From Ahniellaceae bacterium (GTDB lineage Bacteria; Pseudomonadota; Gammaproteobacteria; Xanthomonadales; Ahniellaceae): a stretch of DNA of 24,162 nt. Shown here piece by piece: positions 6,277-24,162 of this stretch; position 1 is the first letter of the stretch, and the number at the start of each line of letters is the position of its first letter. The notes under the pieces were generated by a model. That model was not told the origin of the DNA and did no database searches. It saw only the letters and a program-made list of their open reading frames with translations. The position numbers and the translations under genes are program-made. The stretch spans positions 1-24,162 of the forward strand of contig JBKJSW010000120.1 of the NCBI GenBank assembly GCA_046595765.1, given 5' to 3'.

Positions 6277-9200
6277 TCACCGGCAGCTCGTCGGCCCTTC
6301 CTGGTCCTCAAAGCTTGATGCGAAGACATGTGCCGGATCGGGCAGCGGCGCGGTGCCGCTGACGCGGACGTCGTCGAGGTAGAAGCCTTCCGCTTCGACG
6401 TTCGAATCCGACGTGAAGCGCCAGCGAATCATGACGGCTCGATTGGCGAATGCGGCGAGGTTCGTGGTCTTCGCCTGGAACTCATTCGCGCTGGATCCGG
6501 TGTAGGCACCCTGCGTGGCCGGGTAGCCGCACTCGTTGCCCGGCGGGTTTCCGGTCAGGGAGAGCAGTGCGGGGTAGCCGCCGTCGGGCGGCAGATCGTT
6601 CCAAGTGGCGCCGGCGTCGGTTGAAATCTCCACCACCACGCCGTCCCAGTTGGCCTCGAAGTCGTAGCGTGCCGCGTAGCCGAGCGTCGCGCCCGTCGGC
6701 ACCACGAACGGCGGCGTGGTGATCGCGGCGCAGGTGGCGGCGAGATAGTTCTGACCTTCACCGGCATTGCGATAACTGAAGGACCCTGTGGTCGCGTGCG
6801 CGTTCGAAACTCGCCATGGCGTCGCGAGCGTCATGTACGTGTTGTCGTCGACGTCGTCGAGGTAATCAACGCCCGCAGGGCCGCCGGGCCCCACCGGCGT
6901 CGCGTTGACGATGAGCGAGGGCAGGCTCCGGCTGCCGCCGCTGTCGTGCGCGGTGATGCGGTAGTAGTAGGGCTGGCCCGCGACCACTTCCGTGTCGACA
7001 TGCACATTCGCCGCGGCATCGGCGATCTGCCGCGGTCTGGAAAAGTAGGGATCGGTATCGCGTTCGACGAAGTAGCCGACGCCCGGTGCAATTGCACAGT
7101 TAGACGTGGCCGCGGACCAGTCGAGCCGCACCGAACACGACGTGTTGGTGAAATCGCGAGTCACCGACCGCGTGTCGAACGTGGGGCGACGCGTACAGTT
7201 GTCGGCGGACACGATATCGACGCACTGCGAAGCATGGCCTTCGATGTCGTTGCCGATGCCACGCACCTTGTACGCATAGACGCTGCCGCCTTCCGACATG
7301 GTGTCGACCAACGGGTTGCCGGGCCCGTGCGCGACCATGCGGAACGAGCCCCTGGCAGCCGTCCCGCACGTACCGTCCGCGCGGTACAGCTGGTACCCCT
7401 CGGTGCTGGAGCCGCGAAAGCCGACCGCAACACCGGCGGTGTCGTTGCCGATGACGCCGACCGCGGCGGGCGCGGGATTCGCCATGGCATCGGCGATGCC
7501 GAATGCGCCCGATACGACCAGTGCATAGCCCTGCCGTTCGGTGCCCTCGCGCCCGGTGCCGGGCACGTCGGTGGCCTTGACCCGCAAGGTGTAGGCACCC
7601 GCCGGTGGATCGACGATGCGGATCTGCTCGACGTTGTTGCGGGCATCGGCAATGCCACCGTTGGGCGCGGACACTCCGCCCGCAAAAACATTGCCGCGAT
7701 ACACCGCGGCGCCGCCAGGGCCGAGCACTTCCAGATCGAGATTGTTGACGAGCTTGATGCCCGCACCGGGCGCTCCTTCCGGATCAGTCCAGACCAGCGT
7801 CACGCGCAATTCCTCGCTGGCGCCGACGTTGCCCAGCGCGTACTCATGCATTTGACCGGTGGCCAGCCCCGCATCGTTCTCGCGCTCGAAGGTGCGCATG
7901 CGACGCGCGTCACCGGGGCCGCCGCCCAAAGCGCTGTCGAAATACAGCGTGTTCTCGAGAAACATGCGCCCCCACCCGAACGTCTGGGTGGGAAGCGAGC
8001 CGAGTATCGCGGTGCCGTTGAGCAGCACGGCCTTCATGAGCGCGCCGTTCGGGTCGATGGCGTCCGCAGCGGTCCGGGCACCGCGCGGATAGAAGCCATC
8101 GGCAAAATACTGACGCATGAGCGCCGCACCCCCGGCAATGGTCGGCGTGGCCATCGACGTGCCGCTGTTCGGCCTCGACGTGCCCGCCTGGATCGTGGCT
8201 GCGTTGTTGGCATTGCCCGCCGCCGACATGACCGCCACGCCCGCCGCCACGATGTCCGGCTTGAGGCGCAGGTCGCGCGTGGGGCCCCGGCTCGAGAAGC
8301 TCGCGATGTCCGTGCTGTTGCCGTGCAACGTGGCGCCCACCGTCAGCACGTTCTTGGCGTTGCCCGGCGACAGGATGCTGCCGGCCTGCGGGCCCGTGTT
8401 GCCGGCCGCCGCGGTGACGAGCAGGCTCTCCAGCTCCCAGGTCGTGACATCGGCATCGACGTCGTTGCCGTTGTAGGAGCCGCCCGCGCCACCACCCCAA
8501 CTGTTGCTGTGGATGCGCGCGCCACCGGCTGCGGCTTGCCGCAACGTGCCTGCGAAATCCTCGATGCTTAGGCAACCGGTTGCATCATCGCCGATGTCCT
8601 GGAACAGGATCTGCGCGTTCGGCGCCATGCCGTCGTCGCCGCCGGCGTCGTGCGCCGGATCGGTGGGTGAAGCGGTGACTCCGCGATCGCCGGCGACAGT
8701 GCCGACCACGTGCGTGCCGTGAAAGCCAGTAGGCGTGTTGCCCGAGCAGGATTCGTTGTTGTCGAACGCACTCGCGCCCGGTTGCACCCAGTAACCGAGC
8801 ACCTTTCGGTTGCCGTGGCTCGTGCCGATGAGCGGCAACGCAGGGAAGTCGGGATCAGCGATGCCGGTGAACACGCCGGCACCCTGGTCCAGCGCCGTGA
8901 ACCATGATTCGTTGCGGTCGAGGCCAGAGTCCGCGACCGCGACGATCTGGCCGCTGCCAACGAGATCACGGTCCCAGATCGGGCTGCCCGTTTCCGCGTT
9001 CGCCTGGATCGAAGGAAACGACTCGTCGTTCTGGAGCCGCGGTGGATCGTAGTGCGCGATCCACGCGACGCCATCGATGCGCGCCAGCAAATCCACCGCC
9101 TGCTGGAACCTGACGCTCGGCAGCCACGCCCGCAGCCGCGGATGGCGCGCATCCTCGCGCGTACTCACGATCTCGGATTCAGGGAACGATTTGCGCAAGG

Positions 9201-17099: not shown

Positions 17100-19790
17100 T
17101 CAGACGCCGATCGGATTCGCCTTCTCGGGATCGAGCTTGTAGAGCTTGATGGCGCGCGCGGCGTCGGCCGGCTTGAGCGCACCGTCGGCAACCAGCGAAC
17201 TCACCGCGGCGTGCGCGATGTAGTGGCGATCCACTTCGAAATGTCGGCGCAGGTTCGCGCGCGTGTCGCTGCGGCCGAAGCCGTCGGTGCCGAGCACGCT
17301 GAAGCGCATCCCTGCCGGCACGAACGCGCGGATCTGGTCGGCGTAGGCGCGCACGTAGTCGGTCGCGGCAATCGCGGGACCGGTGCGACCGTCGAGCTTG
17401 CCGGTGGCATGGGCGACGCGGGGCGATTTCGCATCGGGATGCAGGCGGTTGTGGCGTTCGCAATCGAAGCCGTCGCGCCGCAGTTCGTTGAAGCTCGGAC
17501 AACTCCAGATATCGCTGACCACGCCGAAGTCCGCCGCCAGCAGTTCGCTCGCCGCGATCGCCTCGCGCAGGATCGTTCCCGATCCCAGCAACTGCACCTT
17601 GAGCTTGGCGCGGCCGCCGTCCTTCAGCAGGTACATGCCCTTGATGATGTCGGGCGCCGCACCCTCCGGCATCGCCGGATGGGTGTAGTTCTCGTTCATC
17701 AGCGTCAGGTACCAGTACGCGTCTTCCTGCTCGGTCAGCATGCGGCGCATGCCGTCCTGCACGATCACCGCGACTTCGAAGGCGAAGGTCGGATCGTACG
17801 CGCGGCAATTCGGGATCGCGCCCGCGAGCAGGTGCGAGTGGCCGTCCTCGTGCTGGAGGCCCTCGCCGTTGAGCGTGGTGCGGCCCGCGGTCGCGCCGAG
17901 CAGGAAACCGCGCGCGCGCATGTCGGCGGCCTGCCAGCAGCTGTCGCCAATGCGCTGCATGCCGAACATCGAATAGAAGATGTAGAACGGCAGCATCTGC
18001 AGGTTGTTGGTGCTGTAGCTGGTGGCCGCGGCCAGCCACGAGCAGAACGCGCCGCATTCGGTGATGCCTTCCTGCAGCACCTGTCCCGCCTGGTCTTCGC
18101 GGTAGAACATGAGCTGTCCCGCGTCCATCGGTTTGTACTTCTGACCGAACGGCGCATAGATGCCGATCTGGCGGAACAGACCTTCCATGCCGAAAGTGCG
18201 CGCCTCGTCAGCGACGATCGGCACCACGCGCGGACCCACGGCCTTGTCGCGCAGGATGAGGTTCAGCACCTGCACGAACGCCATGGTGGTCGAGATTTCG
18301 CGGTCACCGGATTCCTTCAGCAGGCGCTCGAAGATGGCGAGCTCAGGCGTCGGCAACGACTCGTCGGCGCGCTCGCGGCGCTGCGGCAGGTAGCCGCCCA
18401 GCGCGGCGCGACGCTCCTGCAGGTACTTGACCTCGGGCGAATCGGCACCCGGATGGAAGAACGGTACGTCGTCGAGCTGCGCGTCTTCGACCGGTATGCG
18501 GAAGCGATCGCGGAATGCCTTGACCGCGACCGTGTCCATCTTCTTCTGGCCGTGGGTGATGTTCTGCGCCTCGCCGGCCTGGCCCATGCCATAGCCCTTG
18601 ACGGTCTTGGCAAGGATCACCGTCGGCTGGCCCTTGTGCGCGCTCGCTGCCGCGTAGGCCGCGTGCACCTTGACCGGATCGTGGCCACCGCGATTGAGGC
18701 GCCAGATGTCCTCATCGGACATGTTCGCGACCAGCGCCGCGGTCTCGGGATACTTGCCGAAGAAATGTTCGCGCGTGTAGGCACCGCCGAAGGCTTTGCA
18801 GTTCTGGTACTCGCCGTCGACGGTTTCCATCATGAGCTTGCGCAGCATGCCGGTGTGGTCCTGCGCGAGCAGTGGATCCCAATAGCTGCCCCAGACGACC
18901 TTGAGCACGTTCCAGCCGGCGCCGCGGAAGCCACCCTCGAGCTCCTGGATGATCTTGCCGTTGCCGCGCACCGGGCCGTCTAGCCGCTGCAGGTTGCAGT
19001 TGATGACGAAGCACAGGTTGTCGAGGTTTTCGCGGCCACCCAGCGAGATCGCGCCGAGGCTTTCCGGCTCGTCGCACTCGCCGTCACCCATGAAGCACCA
19101 GACCTTGCGGTCGCTCGGCGCCAGCATGCCGCGGCCTTCGAGATACTTGAAGAAGCGCGCCTGATAGATCGCGCTGATGGGCCCGAGGCCCATCGAAACG
19201 GTCGGCGTCTGCCAGAACGTCGGCATCAGCCACGGATGCGGATACGAGGACACGCCGCGGCCACCCGTCTCCATGCGGAAATGATCGAGCTGGTCCTCGC
19301 TCATCCGCCCCTCGAGGAATGCCCGCGCATAGATGCCCGGCGACGAATGCCCCTGGATGTAGAGGAGATCCCCGGGATGCTCCGCGTGCGGCGCGCGCCA
19401 GAAGTGATTGAAGCCGACGTCATACAGTGTTGCCGACGACGCGAAGCTCGCGATGTGACCGCCCAGCTCGCCGGGTTTGCGATTGGCGCGCACCACAGTC
19501 GCGAGCGCGTTCCAGCGAATCAGTGATCTGATCTTCCACTCGAGCGTGGCGTCGCCGGGCATCGCCGGCTGCTGGGACGGCGGGATCGAATTGATGTACG
19601 CGGTGGTCGGCGTGAACGGCAGATTGCCGCCCGCGCGACGCGTCTCCGCGACCAGTTGCTCGAGCAGGAACTGCGCACGCCCGGTGCCGTCGCGCGCGAT
19701 GATCGCCTGCATGGACTCGACCCATTCGCGCGTCTCGACCGGATCGAGATCGGTCCCAAGGTCCTTCCCGGTCTTCGCTTGATCGTTCAT
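17100..19790 (-). CDS. aceE: Pyruvate dehydrogenase E1 component (homodimeric type), 896 aa
   Basis: 'DLDPVETREW', 'ELGGHIASFASSATLYDVGFNHFW', 'YIQGHSSPGIYARAFLEGR', ThDP-binding 'GDGECDEPES...NCNLQRLDGPV', 'GRTTLNGEGLQHEDG', 'LGTDGFGRSDTR'. Confidence 0.97.
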   Translation of the reverse strand: MNDQAKTGKDLGTDLDPVETREWVESMQAIIARDGTGRAQFLLEQLVAETRRAGGNLPFTPTTAYINSIPPSQQPAMPGDATLEWKIRSLIRWNALATVVRANRKPGELGGHIASFASSATLYDVGFNHFWRAPHAEHPGDLLYIQGHSSPGIYARAFLEGRMSEDQLDHFRMETGGRGVSSYPHPWLMPTFWQTPTVSMGLGPISAIYQARFFKYLEGRGMLAPSDRKVWCFMGDGECDEPESLGAISLGGRENLDNLCFVINCNLQRLDGPVRGNGKIIQELEGGFRGAGWNVLKVVWGSYWDPLLAQDHTGMLRKLMMETVDGEYQNCKAFGGAYTREHFFGKYPETAALVANMSDEDIWRLNRGGHDPVKVHAAYAAASAHKGQPTVILAKTVKGYGMGQAGEAQNITHGQKKMDTVAVKAFRDRFRIPVEDAQLDDVPFFHPGADSPEVKYLQERRAALGGYLPQRRERADESLPTPELAIFERLLKESGDREISTTMAFVQVLNLILRDKAVGPRVVPIVADEARTFGMEGLFRQIGIYAPFGQKYKPMDAGQLMFYREDQAGQVLQEGITECGAFCSWLAAATSYSTNNLQMLPFYIFYSMFGMQRIGDSCWQAADMRARGFLLGATAGRTTLNGEGLQHEDGHSHLLAGAIPNCRAYDPTFAFEVAVIVQDGMRRMLTEQEDAYWYLTLMNENYTHPAMPEGAAPDIIKGMYLLKDGGRAKLKVQLLGSGTILREAIAASELLAADFGVVSDIWSCPSFNELRRDGFDCERHNRLHPDAKSPRVAHATGKLDGRTGPAIAATDYVRAYADQIRAFVPAGMRFSVLGTDGFGRSDTRANLRRHFEVDRHYIAHAAVSSLVADGALKPADAARAIKLYKLDPEKANPIGV

Positions 19791-19823
19791 GGCGCCTTTG
19801 GGAATGTCCGAATCGAGTCGCGC

Positions 19824-19851
19824 AGTCTAACGGCTGCCACAGAGCCGGCAA
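19824..19851 (-). promoter_or_regulatory. Candidate sigma70 promoter for aceE
   Basis: Minus strand TTGCCG (19851-19846), 16 nt, TAGACT (19829-19824), about 33 nt upstream of the ATG. Confidence 0.5.
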
Positions 19852-19932
19852 AAACCGCCGTTCGCGCTGCCGCGCGCAGAATCCTCGACCGATGTCGCCA
19901 CCCCCCAATGCGGGTGGTCGTAGCATTGACGC

Positions 19933-20421
19933 ATGGCCTTTTCCCGAAAGCATCCCATGTCGTGTATTCGTTGCGTTGCCGCAAGTGTTCTTGGATGGAT
20001 GCTGGCGATGCAGCCTGCACTTGCACAGACCACTGTCTCGCATGAGCCTGATGCCGCGCCTTCGGAAAATCCCGTTCCGAGCGGCAGCGTCGGCCTGCGC
20101 GGCGCGCTTGATCCCGTGACAGGCCGGCTGGTGGAGCCGTTGCCCGATCGTCAGCTTGTGCCGATGGTTACGGATGTACCGGGCGCGGAACCCGCGATCG
20201 GTGCCCAGGATTTCTCGCGCGTGCGCATGGAGGTGCTGCCCGACGGCCGCGTACACGCGGACGTGCAGGGCCAATTCGACATGGCCTCATTCGCTCGCAT
20301 CGGCGCGAGTGGAACGGCCGAAACCTGGTGCAAGCCACACGCTGCGGGCGACATGGCGCACTCGCATACGCATGCACCCGACCAACCCGGCGCAGCTGCC
20401 GGCACCGCAACTGCACGATGA
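19933..20421 (+). CDS. Small secreted protein coupled to the downstream metallopeptidase (motifs 'LDPVTGRL' and 'PDGRVHADVQGQF...G....WC'), 162 aa
   Basis: Signal peptide ending ALA|Q. Its TGA (20419-20421) overlaps the next ATG (20418-20420). From memory it resembles the family annotated 'post-PEP-CTERM-1 domain' (unverified). Start could be 19957. Confidence 0.7.
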   Translation: MAFSRKHPMSCIRCVAASVLGWMLAMQPALAQTTVSHEPDAAPSENPVPSGSVGLRGALDPVTGRLVEPLPDRQLVPMVTDVPGAEPAIGAQDFSRVRMEVLPDGRVHADVQGQFDMASFARIGASGTAETWCKPHAAGDMAHSHTHAPDQPGAAAGTATAR

Positions 20422-22586
20422 GCTATCGCGCATTTGTATTCATGGCGGCGCTTGCGGGCTTGCTCGGAGCGATTGCCGACACCCGTGCCGCCACCATCAC
20501 TATCGTCAACCTGGATGCAGCAGGCGAAGGCTTCAACGATGCAACGCTGGTGGCTCCCGAAGGCGGCAACACCGGCACTACGCGCGGTGCGCAACGACTG
20601 CAACTTTTTCAGGCCGCCGCAAACGTGTGGGCCGCGCGCCTGCAGAGCAACATCACGATCAAGGTCGGCGCAAACTTCGATCCGTTGACGCCGTGCGACA
20701 CCAACGGCGGCGTGCTGGGTTCGGCTGGCCCCACCGACCTCTACTCCGCGCCGAGCGGCCTGCCGCGTCCCAATACTTTGTATGTGGTGGCTCAGGTGGA
20801 GGCGATTACCGCCGCCAATCAGAACGGCACCGGCAACGAACTTGAGGCACGCTTCAACTCGAGCGTTGACGCCAGCTGCCTCGGTGCCGGCTCGCGTTTC
20901 TGGTACGGGACGGATCCTGCAATTCCCGTGCCGTCGAACCGGGTCGCATTGTTTCCGGTGGTGTTGCACGAGATCGCGCATGGACTCGGATTTATCAGTT
21001 TCGTATGCGTCAACCCGTCGGGATGCGGGCCAGCCGATCCGCACGGAAGCGAATTGGGCGACCTTGATGATGCATGGAGCTTTCTGACTCTTGACCGAGG
21101 TCTGGGCCTCCGATGGAGCCAGATGAGCGACGCGCAGCGCGCGGATTCCATGAACAACGATCCGAACCTGGTCTGGGACGGCGCCGCAGTGAACGCAGCA
21201 CTCCCCTCGCTGCAACCGGGATCGACCGGCACCAACGGCAGCGGTGCATTGCGGCGATTGCGCCTGCATGCGCCGGCAACTATCCAGCCGGGATCGAGCG
21301 TCTCGCACTGGACCAACGCTGCGGCAAGTCCTGATCTCCTGATGGAGCCCTCGCTCTCCACCGGCGTGTTCAACAGCGTCGACATGACGGTGCCGCTTTT
21401 CCAGGACATCGGGTGGCCTTTGGCGGGTGCGCCACCGAATCAGCCACCGGTCATCGCGCGGCCCGCCTCCATCACGATCACCGAAGATATCGCCTCGTCG
21501 ATCACCGGCATCTCGTTCGCCGATCCGGACATTGGCGGCGGCAGTCTGACTGCGACTTTCAGTGTCGGTGCCGGCTCGTTCAACAGCCCCGGTTGTGTGG
21601 GCGTGACTTCGGGCGGCACCGCGACATCGCGCACGCTGATCGGAACGCTGAGCAACCTCAACTCGTGTATTGGCGTCGGGAGTTTTCGCTACACGACGGC
21701 CACGGACTCGACCGCGTCGCTCACCATGACGGTGACCGCGAACGACAACGGCAATACGGGCACGGGCGGTGCGATGACCGATACCGAAATGGTCACGCTC
21801 AACATCACTGCGGTTAACGACGCACCCGTCAGCACTGTGCCAGCGTCGATTGCGGTGAACGAAGATGTGGCGACAGGGTTGACCGGCATTTCGTTCGCCG
21901 ATGTCGATAGTGGCGGGGGCGCGATCACGGTCACGCTGTCGGTATCGAACGGCAGCATCGACTCACCCGTGTGCGCGGGCGTCGTCGTGGCCGGCAACGC
22001 AACTTCGCGCCAGCTCACCGGCACGCTCGCACAGATCAACGCCTGCTTCGGCGGCGCCAACCGTCCGCGTTTCACCACCGCGCCGAACGCGACCACGAAT
22101 GTGCAGTTGACGGTCTCCGTCAGCGACAACAGCAACACCGGCACCGGTGGAACCGGCAATGACTCCGATGCGTTGACCTTGATGGTTACCGCCGTCAACG
22201 ATGCGCCGAGCGTGACCTTGCCGGCCAGCATTGCAATCCTCGTGCCGGGCACGCTGCCGCTGCGCGGAATCGAAGTGGCCGACGTCGATTCAGCGGCCGG
22301 CAACGTGACCGCAACGCTGTCGGTGCCGATCGGAACGCTGAGCGCCATCACTGCGGGCGGGGTTGCGGTTGCGGGCTCCGGCACCGCGACGGTTGTGCTC
22401 TCCGGCAACATCGCCAGTGTCGCGGCGTTTCTCGCCAGCGACGCCGCAAGTTACACCGCCGACGGCAACACCACGCTGACGGTCTCGCTCAACGATCAAG
22501 GCAACTTCGGCTCGGGCGGCCCGCAGGCCGCTGTCGCGATGACGCCACTCGTGCGCGACGACCTCTTCGCCAACAGCTTCGAATAA
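20418..22586 (+). CDS. Secreted zinc metallopeptidase-like protein (HExxH) with three cadherin-like repeats and a terminal DDLFANSFE, 722 aa
   Basis: Signal peptide; 'ATITIVNLD..GEGFND....P.GGN.GTT.GAQRL'; VVLHEIAHGLGF (20967-20981); 'GSSVSHW' and 'LMEP'; three 'N(Q/D)(P/A)P' repeats. Confidence 0.82.
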   Translation: MSYRAFVFMAALAGLLGAIADTRAATITIVNLDAAGEGFNDATLVAPEGGNTGTTRGAQRLQLFQAAANVWAARLQSNITIKVGANFDPLTPCDTNGGVLGSAGPTDLYSAPSGLPRPNTLYVVAQVEAITAANQNGTGNELEARFNSSVDASCLGAGSRFWYGTDPAIPVPSNRVALFPVVLHEIAHGLGFISFVCVNPSGCGPADPHGSELGDLDDAWSFLTLDRGLGLRWSQMSDAQRADSMNNDPNLVWDGAAVNAALPSLQPGSTGTNGSGALRRLRLHAPATIQPGSSVSHWTNAAASPDLLMEPSLSTGVFNSVDMTVPLFQDIGWPLAGAPPNQPPVIARPASITITEDIASSITGISFADPDIGGGSLTATFSVGAGSFNSPGCVGVTSGGTATSRTLIGTLSNLNSCIGVGSFRYTTATDSTASLTMTVTANDNGNTGTGGAMTDTEMVTLNITAVNDAPVSTVPASIAVNEDVATGLTGISFADVDSGGGAITVTLSVSNGSIDSPVCAGVVVAGNATSRQLTGTLAQINACFGGANRPRFTTAPNATTNVQLTVSVSDNSNTGTGGTGNDSDALTLMVTAVNDAPSVTLPASIAILVPGTLPLRGIEVADVDSAAGNVTATLSVPIGTLSAITAGGVAVAGSGTATVVLSGNIASVAAFLASDAASYTADGNTTLTVSLNDQGNFGSGGPQAAVAMTPLVRDDLFANSFE
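21438..22550 (+). repeat. Three ~120-127-aa cadherin/Ig-like repeats (starts 21438, 21816, 22197)
   Basis: Each has 'N.(P/A)P....PASI...ED....TGISFAD.D....T.T.SV..G', ending 'T.....D..N.G.GG', joined by 'TAVNDAP'. The third copy is more diverged. Confidence 0.85.
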
Positions 22587-22636
22587 CTCAGGGGGTGCGG
22601 ATCGCCACCGCGCTGCACCCAATGCGTCTGCGATAG

Positions 22637-22656
22637 GTGGACCTGCACCGTTCTTC
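22637..22656 (+). repeat. REP-like repeat copy A, GTGGACCTGCACCGTTCTTC
   Basis: Matches 24006-24026 apart from a 1-nt indel. Contains a small GGTG/CACC hairpin. Confidence 0.75.
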
Positions 22657-22665
22657 ACACGACCG

Positions 22666-22720
22666 CAGCAACTCCGAGTTGGCCGCTACGATGCGGACTC
22701 ATGAAATATCCGGGTTAGCG
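22666..22720 (-). other. Degenerate attC remnant at the 3' end of the fos cassette
   Basis: Minus strand CGCTAAC-CCGGA (R''-like) ... GGCCAAC-TCGGA-GTTGCTG (L'/R'-like), 55 bp. The L'' arm does not pair, so it is probably non-functional. Confidence 0.4.
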
Positions 22721-23121
22721 CTCAGCAAGCGGTACCGCGCGAGGCGCTGATCAAGCGTGCCACTGTGCAGCTCAAACAAGTGATTGTCGAAGTCGTAGAA
22801 GTACAGCGACATCCCCTCTCCATCGATACGGCTGCGGGGTGGCAGAATCTCCACGCCAAGCGCCTGAAGGCTGGATCGATACACGCGCAAATCAGCCTCG
22901 CTCACTGCGAATGCAACATGTTGGTAAGACTTCTGCGCGGGCGGCTCACCCTCCATGGCCGCGAGCCATACGCCGCCAAGTACAAAGAATTTTTCTCGCG
23001 ACAGCGAGTGGTTCTGACCAGAACTGTCATAGACCTCGCGCGCGCCCAAGCCCCGGCACAAGAATGTGGCCATGCGCTCAAGGTCTCGCACGATAAACGT
23101 GATGTGGCTGATTCCTTCCAT
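22699..23121 (-). CDS. fosX: FosX/FosE-like fosfomycin resistance protein (VOC superfamily epoxide hydrolase), 140 aa
   Basis: MEGISHITFIVRDL, 'SLSREKFF', 'SYQHVAF', 'R..GEG.SLYFYDFDNHLFELH.GTL..RL..Y'. Metal ligands (His, His, Glu) and the FosX-type EKFF glutamate are present. Closest in recall to cassette-borne FosE. The symbol denotes the family only. Confidence 0.9.
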   Translation of the reverse strand: MEGISHITFIVRDLERMATFLCRGLGAREVYDSSGQNHSLSREKFFVLGGVWLAAMEGEPPAQKSYQHVAFAVSEADLRVYRSSLQALGVEILPPRSRIDGEGMSLYFYDFDNHLFELHSGTLDQRLARYRLLSANPDIS

Positions 23122-23124
23122 GGT

Positions 23125-23214
23125 CACTGACGCCGTGTTAAGCCGCCGCCGCGTTGAGCACGACGGAAAAACAATGCGGTGATTTCGGCGGTCGGCCTGA
23201 ACACATAGTCAACC
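23125..23214 (-). other. attC site (90 bp) between the TA cassette and the fos cassette
   Basis: Minus strand: R'' GGTTGAC, 5 nt, L'' GTTCAGGC, CGACCGCCG ... CGGCGGCG, L' GCTTAAC, 5 nt, R' GTCAGTG. The arms pair with two extrahelical bases (C, then A on the top strand), as in canonical attC. Confidence 0.85.
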
Positions 23215-23502
23215 CCGCACGTCCCAGTAGCCGGGACGACGGCGATGATGTGCGACCGCGAGGACTTGAACTATGCCACCGACCTCGCGGAAAAAAACAG
23301 TGAAAGGGACTTGATGCAGCACGGCGCGACGAAGGCCAGACGGCGCCTACGCGGAATGCTGTAGTGGGGCTTCGCACACGCGCTCCAGCGCACTCGCAAA
23401 CTCGGCCAGGTAGCGCGCACCCAATCCAGGTTGCTGGGACTCATAGAACGCGACCTGTTCAAGATGCTCCGCTTCGGCAGCAGGATGGAACGCGTAGTTC
23501 AA
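23209..23502 (-). pseudogene. RelE/ParE-family toxin with an in-frame amber stop at codon 52
   Basis: TTG start overlaps the antitoxin TGA. MNYAFHPAAEAE...YESQQPGLGARY...VCEAP, then TAG at 23349-23347. The same frame continues as APSGLRRAVLHQVPFTVFFRE....QVLAVAHHRRRPGYW to TGA at 23211-23209. Confidence 0.85.
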
Positions 23503-23723
23503 CGAAGCAATGCTCGAGCCTTCCGTGCAACCTGGGCACCTGGAACCAATTGCACAACACCCGAATCGACTCCTCGTGCCCGACGCTCGGCCTCTTCCAT
23601 CCACAAGTTCTCGATCTCGGCAGGAGACAGCACATCCAGGCTCTCCAACAATTCGTGCGCAAGCCTGGCGCGATCTGCTGGCGGCACACTCAAGACTTGC
23701 TCTTCGAGCGATTTCATTTCCAT
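23499..23723 (-). CDS. Putative addiction-module antitoxin (TIGR02574-like), 74 aa
   Basis: 'LSVPPADRARLAHELLESLD......ENLWMEEAERRARGVDSG.V..VP...V' pattern, directly upstream of and overlapping the RelE/ParE gene. Confidence 0.82.
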   Translation of the reverse strand: MEMKSLEEQVLSVPPADRARLAHELLESLDVLSPAEIENLWMEEAERRARGVDSGVVQLVPGAQVARKARALLR

Positions 23724-23730
23724 GGCGGCG

Positions 23731-23739
23731 AGTTTACCA
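23731..23739 (-). promoter_or_regulatory. Extended -10 promoter of the TA cassette (likely leaderless)
   Basis: TGGTAAACT (TGn + TAAACT) ends 7 nt before ATG 23723. No SD sequence in between. Confidence 0.5.
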
Positions 23740-23756
23740 GCGGTTTGTTTGAGCGA

Positions 23757-23780
23757 CGCCAACGCTTGAGCTAGTTGGCC
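23757..23780 (-). other. Internally collapsed attC remnant upstream of the TA cassette
   Basis: Minus strand GGCCAAC-TAGCTCAAGC-GTTGGCG. The R''/R' cores pair (GCCAAC/GTTGGC). The 10 nt between them resemble the usual 'TAGC-TCAAGC' right end, and the central arms are absent. Confidence 0.55.
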
Positions 23781-23803
23781 GCTGCCGCGAGGAGTTTGCG
23801 GGT

Positions 23804-23822
23804 AACGGTGCCAGTTCCACTT
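23804..23822 (-). repeat. REP-like repeat copy B (inverted)
   Basis: Reverse complement AAGTGGAACTGGCACCGTT matches 24004-24022 AAGTGGACCCTGCACCGTT at 16 of 19 positions. Confidence 0.65.
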
Positions 23823-23827
23823 TCCGG

Positions 23828-23974
23828 AGCGACGCCGTCATCGCGGAAATCCGCGCCTACTTGCAACAACAGCGCGTCCTCGGCCACGACGACTTCCGAG
23901 CCCGCGTCGAAGCGCGCGTCATCCGATGCTTCAATGTCCGCCCCGCCCACCGACCGCGCCTCGCGGACAAATGA
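23828..23974 (+). pseudogene. 3' remnant of a Y1 HUH (RAYT / Y1_Tnp-like) transposase
   Basis: This frame is absent from the ORF track. It reads SDAVIAEIRAYLQQQRVLGHDDFRARVEARVIRCFNVRPAHRPRLADK*, matching the recalled C-terminus of Xanthomonadales RAYT-like proteins (IR.YLQQQR.LG.DDFR..VEA....F..VRPAHRP). There is no start codon and no HUH domain. Confidence 0.75.
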
Positions 23975-24003
23975 TCGCGCCAGAATCCGCCGCCCCGCAA
24001 AGT

Positions 24004-24040
24004 AAGTGGACCCTGCACCGTTCTTCTCTGGCACCGTTCC
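24004..24040 (+). repeat. REP-like repeat copy C plus a partial tandem copy
   Basis: AAGTGGACCCTGCACCGTTCTTC at 24004-24026, followed by TGGCACCGTTCC at 24029-24040. Confidence 0.75.
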
Positions 24041-24162
24041 TCTCTCATGCATCGCGCAATTCGAACCCGGTGTAACGTGTCCGTGACTCGCGTATTGTCA
24101 TGGCGTGCACTTGGCTTCGAACGGGCGTAGTCTGATCTTGCCGTCTCGACTGACCGCGCTCG

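Follow-up and report, generated by a model that had tools for sequence, protein, structure and literature searches.

The window analysed here is the entire contig C324 (GenBank JBKJSW010000120.1, 24,162 bases; all positions below refer to it), the longest contig in a 464-contig metagenome bin of an Ahniellaceae bacterium. Towards its end it carries, on the minus strand, a fosfomycin-resistance gene (fos) of the FosX/FosE/FosI family. Our favoured reading, to which we assign a probability of roughly 0.78 on the strength of sequence comparisons, is that the locus represents the remnant of an integron array with two units, in which the fos gene is probably active but has been stranded by loss of its own attC site, beside a parE toxin gene bearing a nonsense mutation. 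The window copy would not be the source of the clinical cassettes fosE and fosI, and a cluster separate from the integron found elsewhere in the bin is favoured. In minus-strand order the locus would run from a parD-like/parE unit through a well-preserved attC and the fosX/fosE/fosI-family cassette to a chromosomal gene, and the fos gene would share an ancestral cassette with clinical fosE and fosI and form a separate lineage. Three features carry this reading:

23121..22699, minus strand: coding sequence of a FosX/FosE/FosI-family fosfomycin hydrolase, 140 residues, ATG at 23121 and stop TGA at 22701–22699 (NF000222, PF00903, structure alignments)
23214..23125, minus strand: attC between parE and fosX, 90 nt (covariance models R1 and R2, covariation, copy alignment)
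22714..22721, minus strand: R″-like octamer GCGCTAAC, the sole recognisable remnant of the fos cassette attC (alignment to fosE, fosI and the metagenome cassette L020)

The fos gene and its product

The fos gene is uninterrupted and single-copy in the bin. Its product scores 198.4 bits with the NCBIfam model NF000222 (FosX/FosE/FosI family fosfomycin resistance hydrolase; curated equivalog cut-off 170 bits), residues 6–132 covering 127 of the 127 profile positions, and it also matches PF00903; with the models for FosA, FosB and other thiol-transferase Fos proteins it falls far below each cut-off. An earlier, sequence-only reading of this stretch had described an intact-looking FosX/FosE-type enzyme, and the 140-residue open reading frame (ORF) bears that description out. 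The protein aligns without gaps to the FosX structures 1R9C (E 5e-46) and 2P7K (E 6e-43). The metal triad is conserved as His8, His70 and Glu119 (His7, His69 and Glu118 in the numbering of Mesorhizobium loti FosX), and so is the general base of FosX, Glu45 (Glu44 in the M. loti numbering), which lies within SLSREKFFVL. The SLSREKFF motif with general base Glu44 separates the hydrolases from the thiol transferases (bioRxiv 10.1101/2024.11.04.621841 for the motif). Judged by its homology to FosX, the protein most likely acts as a Mn(II)-dependent epoxide hydrolase, which would add water to C1 of fosfomycin with Glu45 as the general base and His8, His70 and Glu119 as the metal ligands. Its C-terminus lies ~6 residues beyond that of FosE and FosI, and an alternative GTG start of the ORF occurs at 23127, inside the R′ box of the upstream attC.

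The upstream attC and the 5′ cassette junction

Sites were scored with two covariance models: R1, built from six attC copies of the bin, and R2, built from the 69 attCs that R1 recovered (from the bin, four genomes of the same genus and two of the same family, Rhodanobacter, a metagenome contig, and the clinical fosE and fosI integrons). The site ahead of fos scores 97.3 bits with R1 (E 4e-29) and 64.8 bits with R2 (E 2.5e-17, filters off). It comprises R″ GGTTGAC (23214–23208), an L″/L′ stem and R′ GTCAGTG (23131–23125), and it aligns with five further copies in the bin, two on contig C390, two on C399 and one on C445. In this structure 93% of cells are paired and compensatory changes are seen in 17 of the 23 pairs, a result reached by 0 of 500 shuffles. 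Its two extrahelical bases both fall on the minus strand, that of the genes, and the cassettes are therefore read in the direction of the genes. A search with nhmmer found nine or ten members of this attC family on six contigs of the bin, all close to contig ends; copies are also present in genomes of the same genus.

The core of the site is a paired GAC/GTC, nearly invariant elsewhere as AAC/GTT. This paired core occurs in two of the 69 attCs, the other being in a same-genus genome (G003), so that the core in the window is rare but not unique. On one contig of that genome (G003:C17) two attCs (L029:5567–5629 and 7645–7707) carry GAC in R″, and one of these has the matching GTC in R′.

The 5′ boundary of fos consists of the R′ box GTCAGTG, with the core GTC instead of GTT, followed by ACC and then the ATG at 23121, as stated in the sequence-only reading, which had placed the ATG 3 nt after R′. 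The same junction is found in fosE (GTTAGCG-CCC-ATG), in fosI (GTTAGCT-CCC-ATG), in the metagenome cassette L020 (87% identical) and in Rhodanobacter umsongensis, and the crossover G stands exactly 10 nt ahead of the ATG in the window fos, fosE and fosI. These shared cassette junctions imply that all these fos genes descend from one ancestral cassette. The cassette origin proposed earlier for the window gene is thus upheld by the upstream attC and by a junction collinear with those of fosE and fosI.

A weak match to the attC model at 577–652 on the plus strand (15 bits, E 0.03–0.08) lies inside an ORF encoding an 853-residue FtsX-type permease and is most likely due to chance.

Loss of the attC of the fos cassette

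The attC belonging to the fos cassette itself has decayed to the R″ octamer and the cassette is incomplete; the integron integrase (IntI) could therefore not excise it as a unit. In fosE, fosI and L020 the stop codon TAA falls within the R″ box GCGCTAAC. The TAA of the window octamer is out of frame because of an upstream indel, and the fos ORF therefore extends 18 nt to its TGA. When R2 was run over 22590–22740 with filters off it returned nothing above 4.6 bits, the positive controls being 59 bits for the fosE attC, 46 bits for the fosI attC and 59–66 bits for the L020 attCs. Past the octamer, local alignment of the 3′ region to the fosE, fosI and L020 attCs gave similarity at shuffle level only.

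Two 3′ attC candidates picked by eye, 22721–22668 (R′ GTTGCTG) and 22685–22617 (R′ ATTGGGT), were rejected: neither has a model match and both fold like shuffles (z −0.5 to +0.5, as against −2.8 to −3.4 for the fosE attC). The 11-mer AGTTGGCCGCT (22677 and 23773) was likewise rejected as a shared attC core, since its frequency in the genome is roughly that expected by chance and its two copies lie in different contexts. The attC calls of the sequence-only reading, for which it had proposed a covariance-model check, therefore fare unequally, with a strong 5′ site, a 3′ site below 5 bits and a marginal site (12 bits) at the upper boundary.

The Rhodanobacter fos homologue is also without a 3′ attC detectable by model search, and such fusions are accordingly not rare. 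This homologue, in R. umsongensis (L021), is part of a cassette array and directly adjoins three cassettes with GFA domains (PF04828; L021 2012–2419, 4450–4842 and 4933–5199). Gfa is reported as a new integron-borne family of fosfomycin resistance in a 2026 preprint (10.64898/2026.10.07.757220).

The toxin–antitoxin unit and expression of fosX

Ahead of the attC, on the same strand as fos, lies a toxin–antitoxin (TA) unit of the ParDE type, with a possible boundary site beyond it:

23723..23499, minus strand: antitoxin gene, 74 residues, ATG at 23723, PF09720 'putative addiction module component' (PF09720 50.1 bits; TIGR02574 weak)
23502..23209, minus strand: ParE-family toxin gene with an amber stop (three-frame translation; PF05016)
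23781..23755, minus strand: marginal R″/R′ mini-site, GGCCAAC-10 nt-GTTGGCG, with no L boxes (R2 12.1 bits)

Codon 52 of parE is an in-frame TAG (23349–23347); read through this codon with X, the gene scores 32.5 bits with PF05016 over profile positions 1–88 of 89. A doubly frameshifted parE was considered and rejected, since three-frame translation shows the single in-frame TAG. The TTG start of parE and the stop of the antitoxin gene overlap in TTGA, the TGA that ends parE falls within the R″ box of the attC, and a longer antitoxin with a TTG start at 23762 is possible. The antitoxin is intact and the toxin gene interrupted, so that the module is not an intact operon. The TA cassette of the sequence-only reading thus stands as regards an antitoxin and a ParE toxin on one strand; the toxin is nonsense-mutated, and the attC that had served as its upper boundary is the marginal mini-site (E 0.22 over the window, 0.004 over 423 nt), which may be a collapsed attC or simply due to chance.

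The TA cassette had also been credited with a promoter of its own, and this found no support: a consensus scan of 22500–24162 detected no sigma-70-type promoter. A possible extended −10 element, TGGTAAACT (23739–23731), lies 7 nt ahead of the antitoxin ATG; it was seen by eye, is unscored and is speculative. By eye, too, no Shine–Dalgarno-like sequence precedes the fos ATG. Any expression of fosX would come from transcription entering via the TA unit or from further upstream; with the toxin gene nonsense-mutated and no promoter returned by the scan, such read-through expression is plausible but unsupported.

Host, integrase and chromosomal setting

The bin amounts to 2.76 Mb at 66% GC, with completeness 84% and contamination 3.8%. 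The pyruvate dehydrogenase E1 (AceE) encoded on the window contig is 79–81% identical to those of Chiayiivirga, Silanimonas and Arenimonas (Xanthomonadaceae/Lysobacteraceae) and 88–95% identical to metagenome proteins; the host is therefore an uncultured genus of Xanthomonadales, the order named in the sequence-only reading. Another contig of the bin, C315 (1–4788), holds a second, cassette-free version of window positions 19249–22587 (aceE 90%, peptidase 73% identical). Given these two versions of the aceE–peptidase locus, two related populations are probably mixed in the bin, and arguments from linkage between contigs are weakened accordingly.

The array had been described as integrase-less. 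The window contig indeed carries no integrase, but an intact integron integrase gene (intI) accompanied by the same attC family is present on bin contig C445, as a 333-residue ORF without stops (TIGR02249 494–495 bits, cut-off 265). Also on that contig are an attI-like GTTAGGC junction and a pair of cassettes, of which the first ends in an attC of the window family. The window has a single strong attC, and about eight further attCs of its family are spread over five other bin contigs (C445, C390, C399, C96 and C78). Array ends pointing into chromosomal genes occur on the window contig, on C390 (into cysD/cysN-like genes) and on C96, and one integron cannot account for all three. A fragment of an IS110-family transposase lies at the end of C445 (L009 1–376), abutting the second cassette next to intI, and on C399 the cassettes are succeeded by an IS3-family orfAB (L008 1953–3115); these insertion sequences probably explain the contig breaks. 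Some IS110-family members target attC sites.

Two genomes of the same genus, G003 and G002, have a convergent gene directly after the orthologous aceE–peptidase locus, and neither attC nor fos nor TA genes are present there. The cassette-free locus on C315 shares the G003 arrangement, with a convergent gene next; the window contig ends before any such gene. The fos–TA segment looks like an insertion beside the peptidase gene in one of the two populations, and we lean towards treating the fos–TA cluster as a separate remnant resembling a cluster of attC sites lacking integron integrases (CALIN), not as the tail of the C445 integron. Like CALINs and the sedentary chromosomal integrons of Xanthomonadales, it has small ORFs on one strand split by attC, a homogeneous and lineage-specific attC family, a TA unit within the array and decay of the distal parts. 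It differs in having one model-detectable attC on the window contig, with intI elsewhere in the bin; the usual CALIN definition, said to go back to Cury and colleagues in 2016, reportedly asks for at least two attC.

The gene has a patchy distribution. No fos DNA was found in the 30 relatives searched. Nine of the 301 genomes sampled across the order were positive with the Fos family model, and 40 further members of the host family were all negative. Apart from the bin itself, only two of the eight positive genomes of the order have a model-detected attC beside the fos gene. The GC content of the fos region is 0.60–0.62, against 0.66 for the genome. This sparse distribution and lower GC fit an accessory, horizontally acquired gene.

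Place among Fos relatives

By tblastn against plasmids the Fos protein is 81.7% identical to FosI (131 residues) and 80.0% identical to FosE; its identity to Listeria FosX is 50.8%. These values provide the comparison with FosE, FosX and FosI that the sequence-only reading had called for. Among 5.8 billion proteins, 2,641 relatives were found at E up to 1e-20. They are mainly metagenomic, the named ones coming from Rhodanobacter, Dyella, Pseudoxanthomonas, Stenotrophomonas and Methylobacter. The best non-self match is 87% identical and ~100 matches lie at 76–83%, so the suggestion of a novel allele holds. In a tree of 122 sequences (a quick tree only, and a poorly resolved bush) the window protein joins the environmental sequences P0005 and P0031, not FosE or FosI. 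From these comparisons we take the gene to be a new allele in a large, bush-like clade, forming a separate lineage ~80% identical to the clinical alleles.

FosI is the product of the first cassette in plasmid-borne class 1 integrons of Providencia rettgeri, Enterobacter, Pseudomonas monteilii and Mycobacteroides abscessus. It shares with the window protein the family model NF000222, and the two genes share the 5′ junction (core G, 9 nt, ATG) and the R″ box GCGCTAAC at the gene end. The FosI cassette, however, has an intact 60-nt attC, stands beside intI1 and is expressed from the promoter Pc, whereas the window locus is chromosomal, with a decayed 3′ attC, the longer C-terminus and a 90-nt genus-specific upstream attC. 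FosE is likewise encoded by a class 1 integron cassette, for example on Pseudomonas aeruginosa pWTJH2. Its 5′ junction, GTTAGCG-CCC-ATGGAAGG, resembles that of the window, GTCAGTG-ACC-ATGGAAGG, and the order of the window host is the source taxon predicted for the fosE attC. It belongs to a different lineage, and its attC folds strongly and is found by R2, neither of which is true of the 3′ region of the window. With the FosX proteins of M. loti (1R9C) and Listeria monocytogenes (2P7K and others) the window protein has in common the vicinal oxygen chelate fold, the metal triad and the Glu44 general base; the genes for those proteins belong to the chromosomal core and are not cassettes.

Kieffer et al. 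2024 (bioRxiv 10.1101/2024.11.04.621841) described four new FosX-family cassette alleles from environmental integrons, fosE2, fosI2, fosI3 and fosP, which are mutually 72–82% identical. All four raised the fosfomycin minimal inhibitory concentration (MIC) of Escherichia coli to 32–256 μg/ml, an effect insensitive to phosphonoformate, and the same study reports a fosE2-like gene without attC in a Lysobacteraceae chromosome. Compared by published description, these alleles fall in the same hydrolase subtree as the window gene, are environmental cassettes as well and cover a similar range of identity to FosE and FosI (75–89%). They differ in having been MIC-tested, the window protein being known here from its sequence.

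Alternative readings

The sequence-only reading had raised the possibility of a source-side allele, in which case the array would be a reservoir or even the direct progenitor of the fosE and fosI of class 1 integrons. The host belongs to Xanthomonadales, the type to which the fosE attC was assigned by Ghaly et al. 2021 (PMC8352920), and the cassette junctions are collinear with those of fosE and fosI. An amino-acid identity of only 80.0–81.7% is nevertheless low for a source, and the same protein sample holds closer environmental relatives than the window protein for both FosI (87–89%) and FosE (~85%), the window protein being no nearer to either than dozens of other environmental alleles are. 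It groups with neither in the tree, its 3′ attC has decayed and is unlike those of fosE and fosI, and its upstream attC belongs to the 90-nt genus family and not to the 60-nt fosE type. For the window allele a source-side role is effectively refuted, and we hold it to be very improbable. A better chance, though still a small one, belongs to the view that the protein is a FosX-fold hydrolase with some other native epoxide or phosphonate substrate, conferring no meaningful fosfomycin resistance, and that the gene is silent anyway. Catalytic efficiency varies widely within the FosX family, M. loti FosX being a poor resistance enzyme, and this weighs against a probably active resistance gene. The promoter scan was negative, no Shine–Dalgarno-like motif was seen ahead of the ATG, and six of the eight other positive genomes of the order have no attC within 1.5 kb of the gene, which is thus often an ordinary chromosomal one. 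Against another substrate stand the score above the NF000222 equivalog cut-off, the retention of the catalytic tetrad and the SLSREKFF motif, and the fosfomycin resistance that fosE2, fosI2, fosI3 and fosP, all from environmental cassettes and from this subtree, conferred in E. coli (bioRxiv 10.1101/2024.11.04.621841).

The stranded remnant that we favour must also be set against an intact, mobile cassette at the distal end of a single sedentary chromosomal integron of the bin, with an unusual but functional attC on its 3′ side and the rest hidden by the contig break. Such an arrangement would suit the intact intI and shared attC family in the bin and the position of the array pieces at contig ends, as expected of repeats that break assemblies, and heptamers resembling R″ and R′ can be picked out by eye 3′ of the gene (22721–22714 with 22674–22668, and 22685–22679 with 22623–22617). 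Yet R2, which finds the fosE and fosI attCs at 46–59 bits, scores neither 3′ candidate, and their folds are like those of shuffles. The bin has at least three junctions of the distal type, too many for one array, and the array is absent at the same locus in relatives and on C315. We therefore regard an intact cassette as unlikely, a shade more so than a different substrate. Several other points count against the stranded remnant. The decayed 3′ attC and the amber stop in parE could in principle be errors of assembly or consensus in a metagenome bin. Further attCs or an intI could lie just past the contig end, which comes 440 nt beyond the TA unit, and C445 with its intI may derive from the other population, since the bin seems to hold two haplotypes of the aceE locus. 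The GAC/GTC core might impair the upstream attC, the one good site, or might leave it fully functional. A variant emphasis, which we consider improbable, sees the locus as a resistance cassette of the fosE/fosI lineage that, having lost its attC, is caught while being fixed in the chromosome beside a disabled addiction module, with a surviving attC whose GAC/GTC core recurs in a second genome of the genus; if this were true, the IntI of the genus would tolerate or use a crossover triplet other than AAC.

Flanking gene and interspersed repeat

Two further features frame the fos–TA segment:

20328..22586, plus strand: 752-residue secreted HExxH-type/cadherin-like protein, the convergent chromosomal flank (ORF list, PF17803)
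23804..24043, no strand: copy of a genus-level interspersed repeat with inverted 19-nt ends (repeat analysis; AACGGTGCnGGnTCCACTT at 24022–24004, inverse at 23804–23822)

The stop of the 752-residue flank gene is 112 nt from the fosX stop. Its protein ends in ...LFANSFE (22560–22586), and its orthologues in three genomes have the C-termini FSNSFE (G003), FANGFE (G002) and FADGFE (G001).

An extra 22-nt copy of the repeat motif lies at 22635–22657, directly 3′ of fosX, so that copies occur on both sides of the fos–TA segment. The repeat matches at 76–90% in four places of the same-genus genome G005 (L023 at about 530–790, L024, L025 and L026). Its 19–22-nt motif (GAAGAACGGTGCnGGTCCACTTA) occurs singly, in tandem or as inverted pairs, often followed by a conserved stretch of ~100 nt (GGTCGGTGGGCGGGGCGGAC...GACGCGCGCTTCGACGCGGGC). 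The repeat at 23804–24043 has no Pfam, NCBIfam or Rfam match, and an Rfam scan of the window gave no match above noise. The 93-residue ORF at 24052–23771 was weighed as a possible cassette gene and rejected, since no family model matches it and the underlying DNA is an interspersed repeat in G005. The idea of a RAYT/Y1 transposase remnant at the end of the contig was likewise rejected, PF01797 matching six other contigs and nothing in the window (E up to 0.1).

Significance

The window copy is neither a source nor now mobilisable, and its direct relevance to the spread of resistance is accordingly small. The lesson of method is more useful: before an array in a fragmented bin is called 'integrase-less', the remaining contigs should be examined, and a covariance model should be used to verify attC sites picked by eye. 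For the order, the locus adds one more data point to an established view: environmental Xanthomonadales harbour circulating FosX-family hydrolase cassettes of the fosE/fosI type, in line with the prediction based on the fosE attC (PMC8352920) and with the results of cassette sequencing (bioRxiv 10.1101/2024.11.04.621841).

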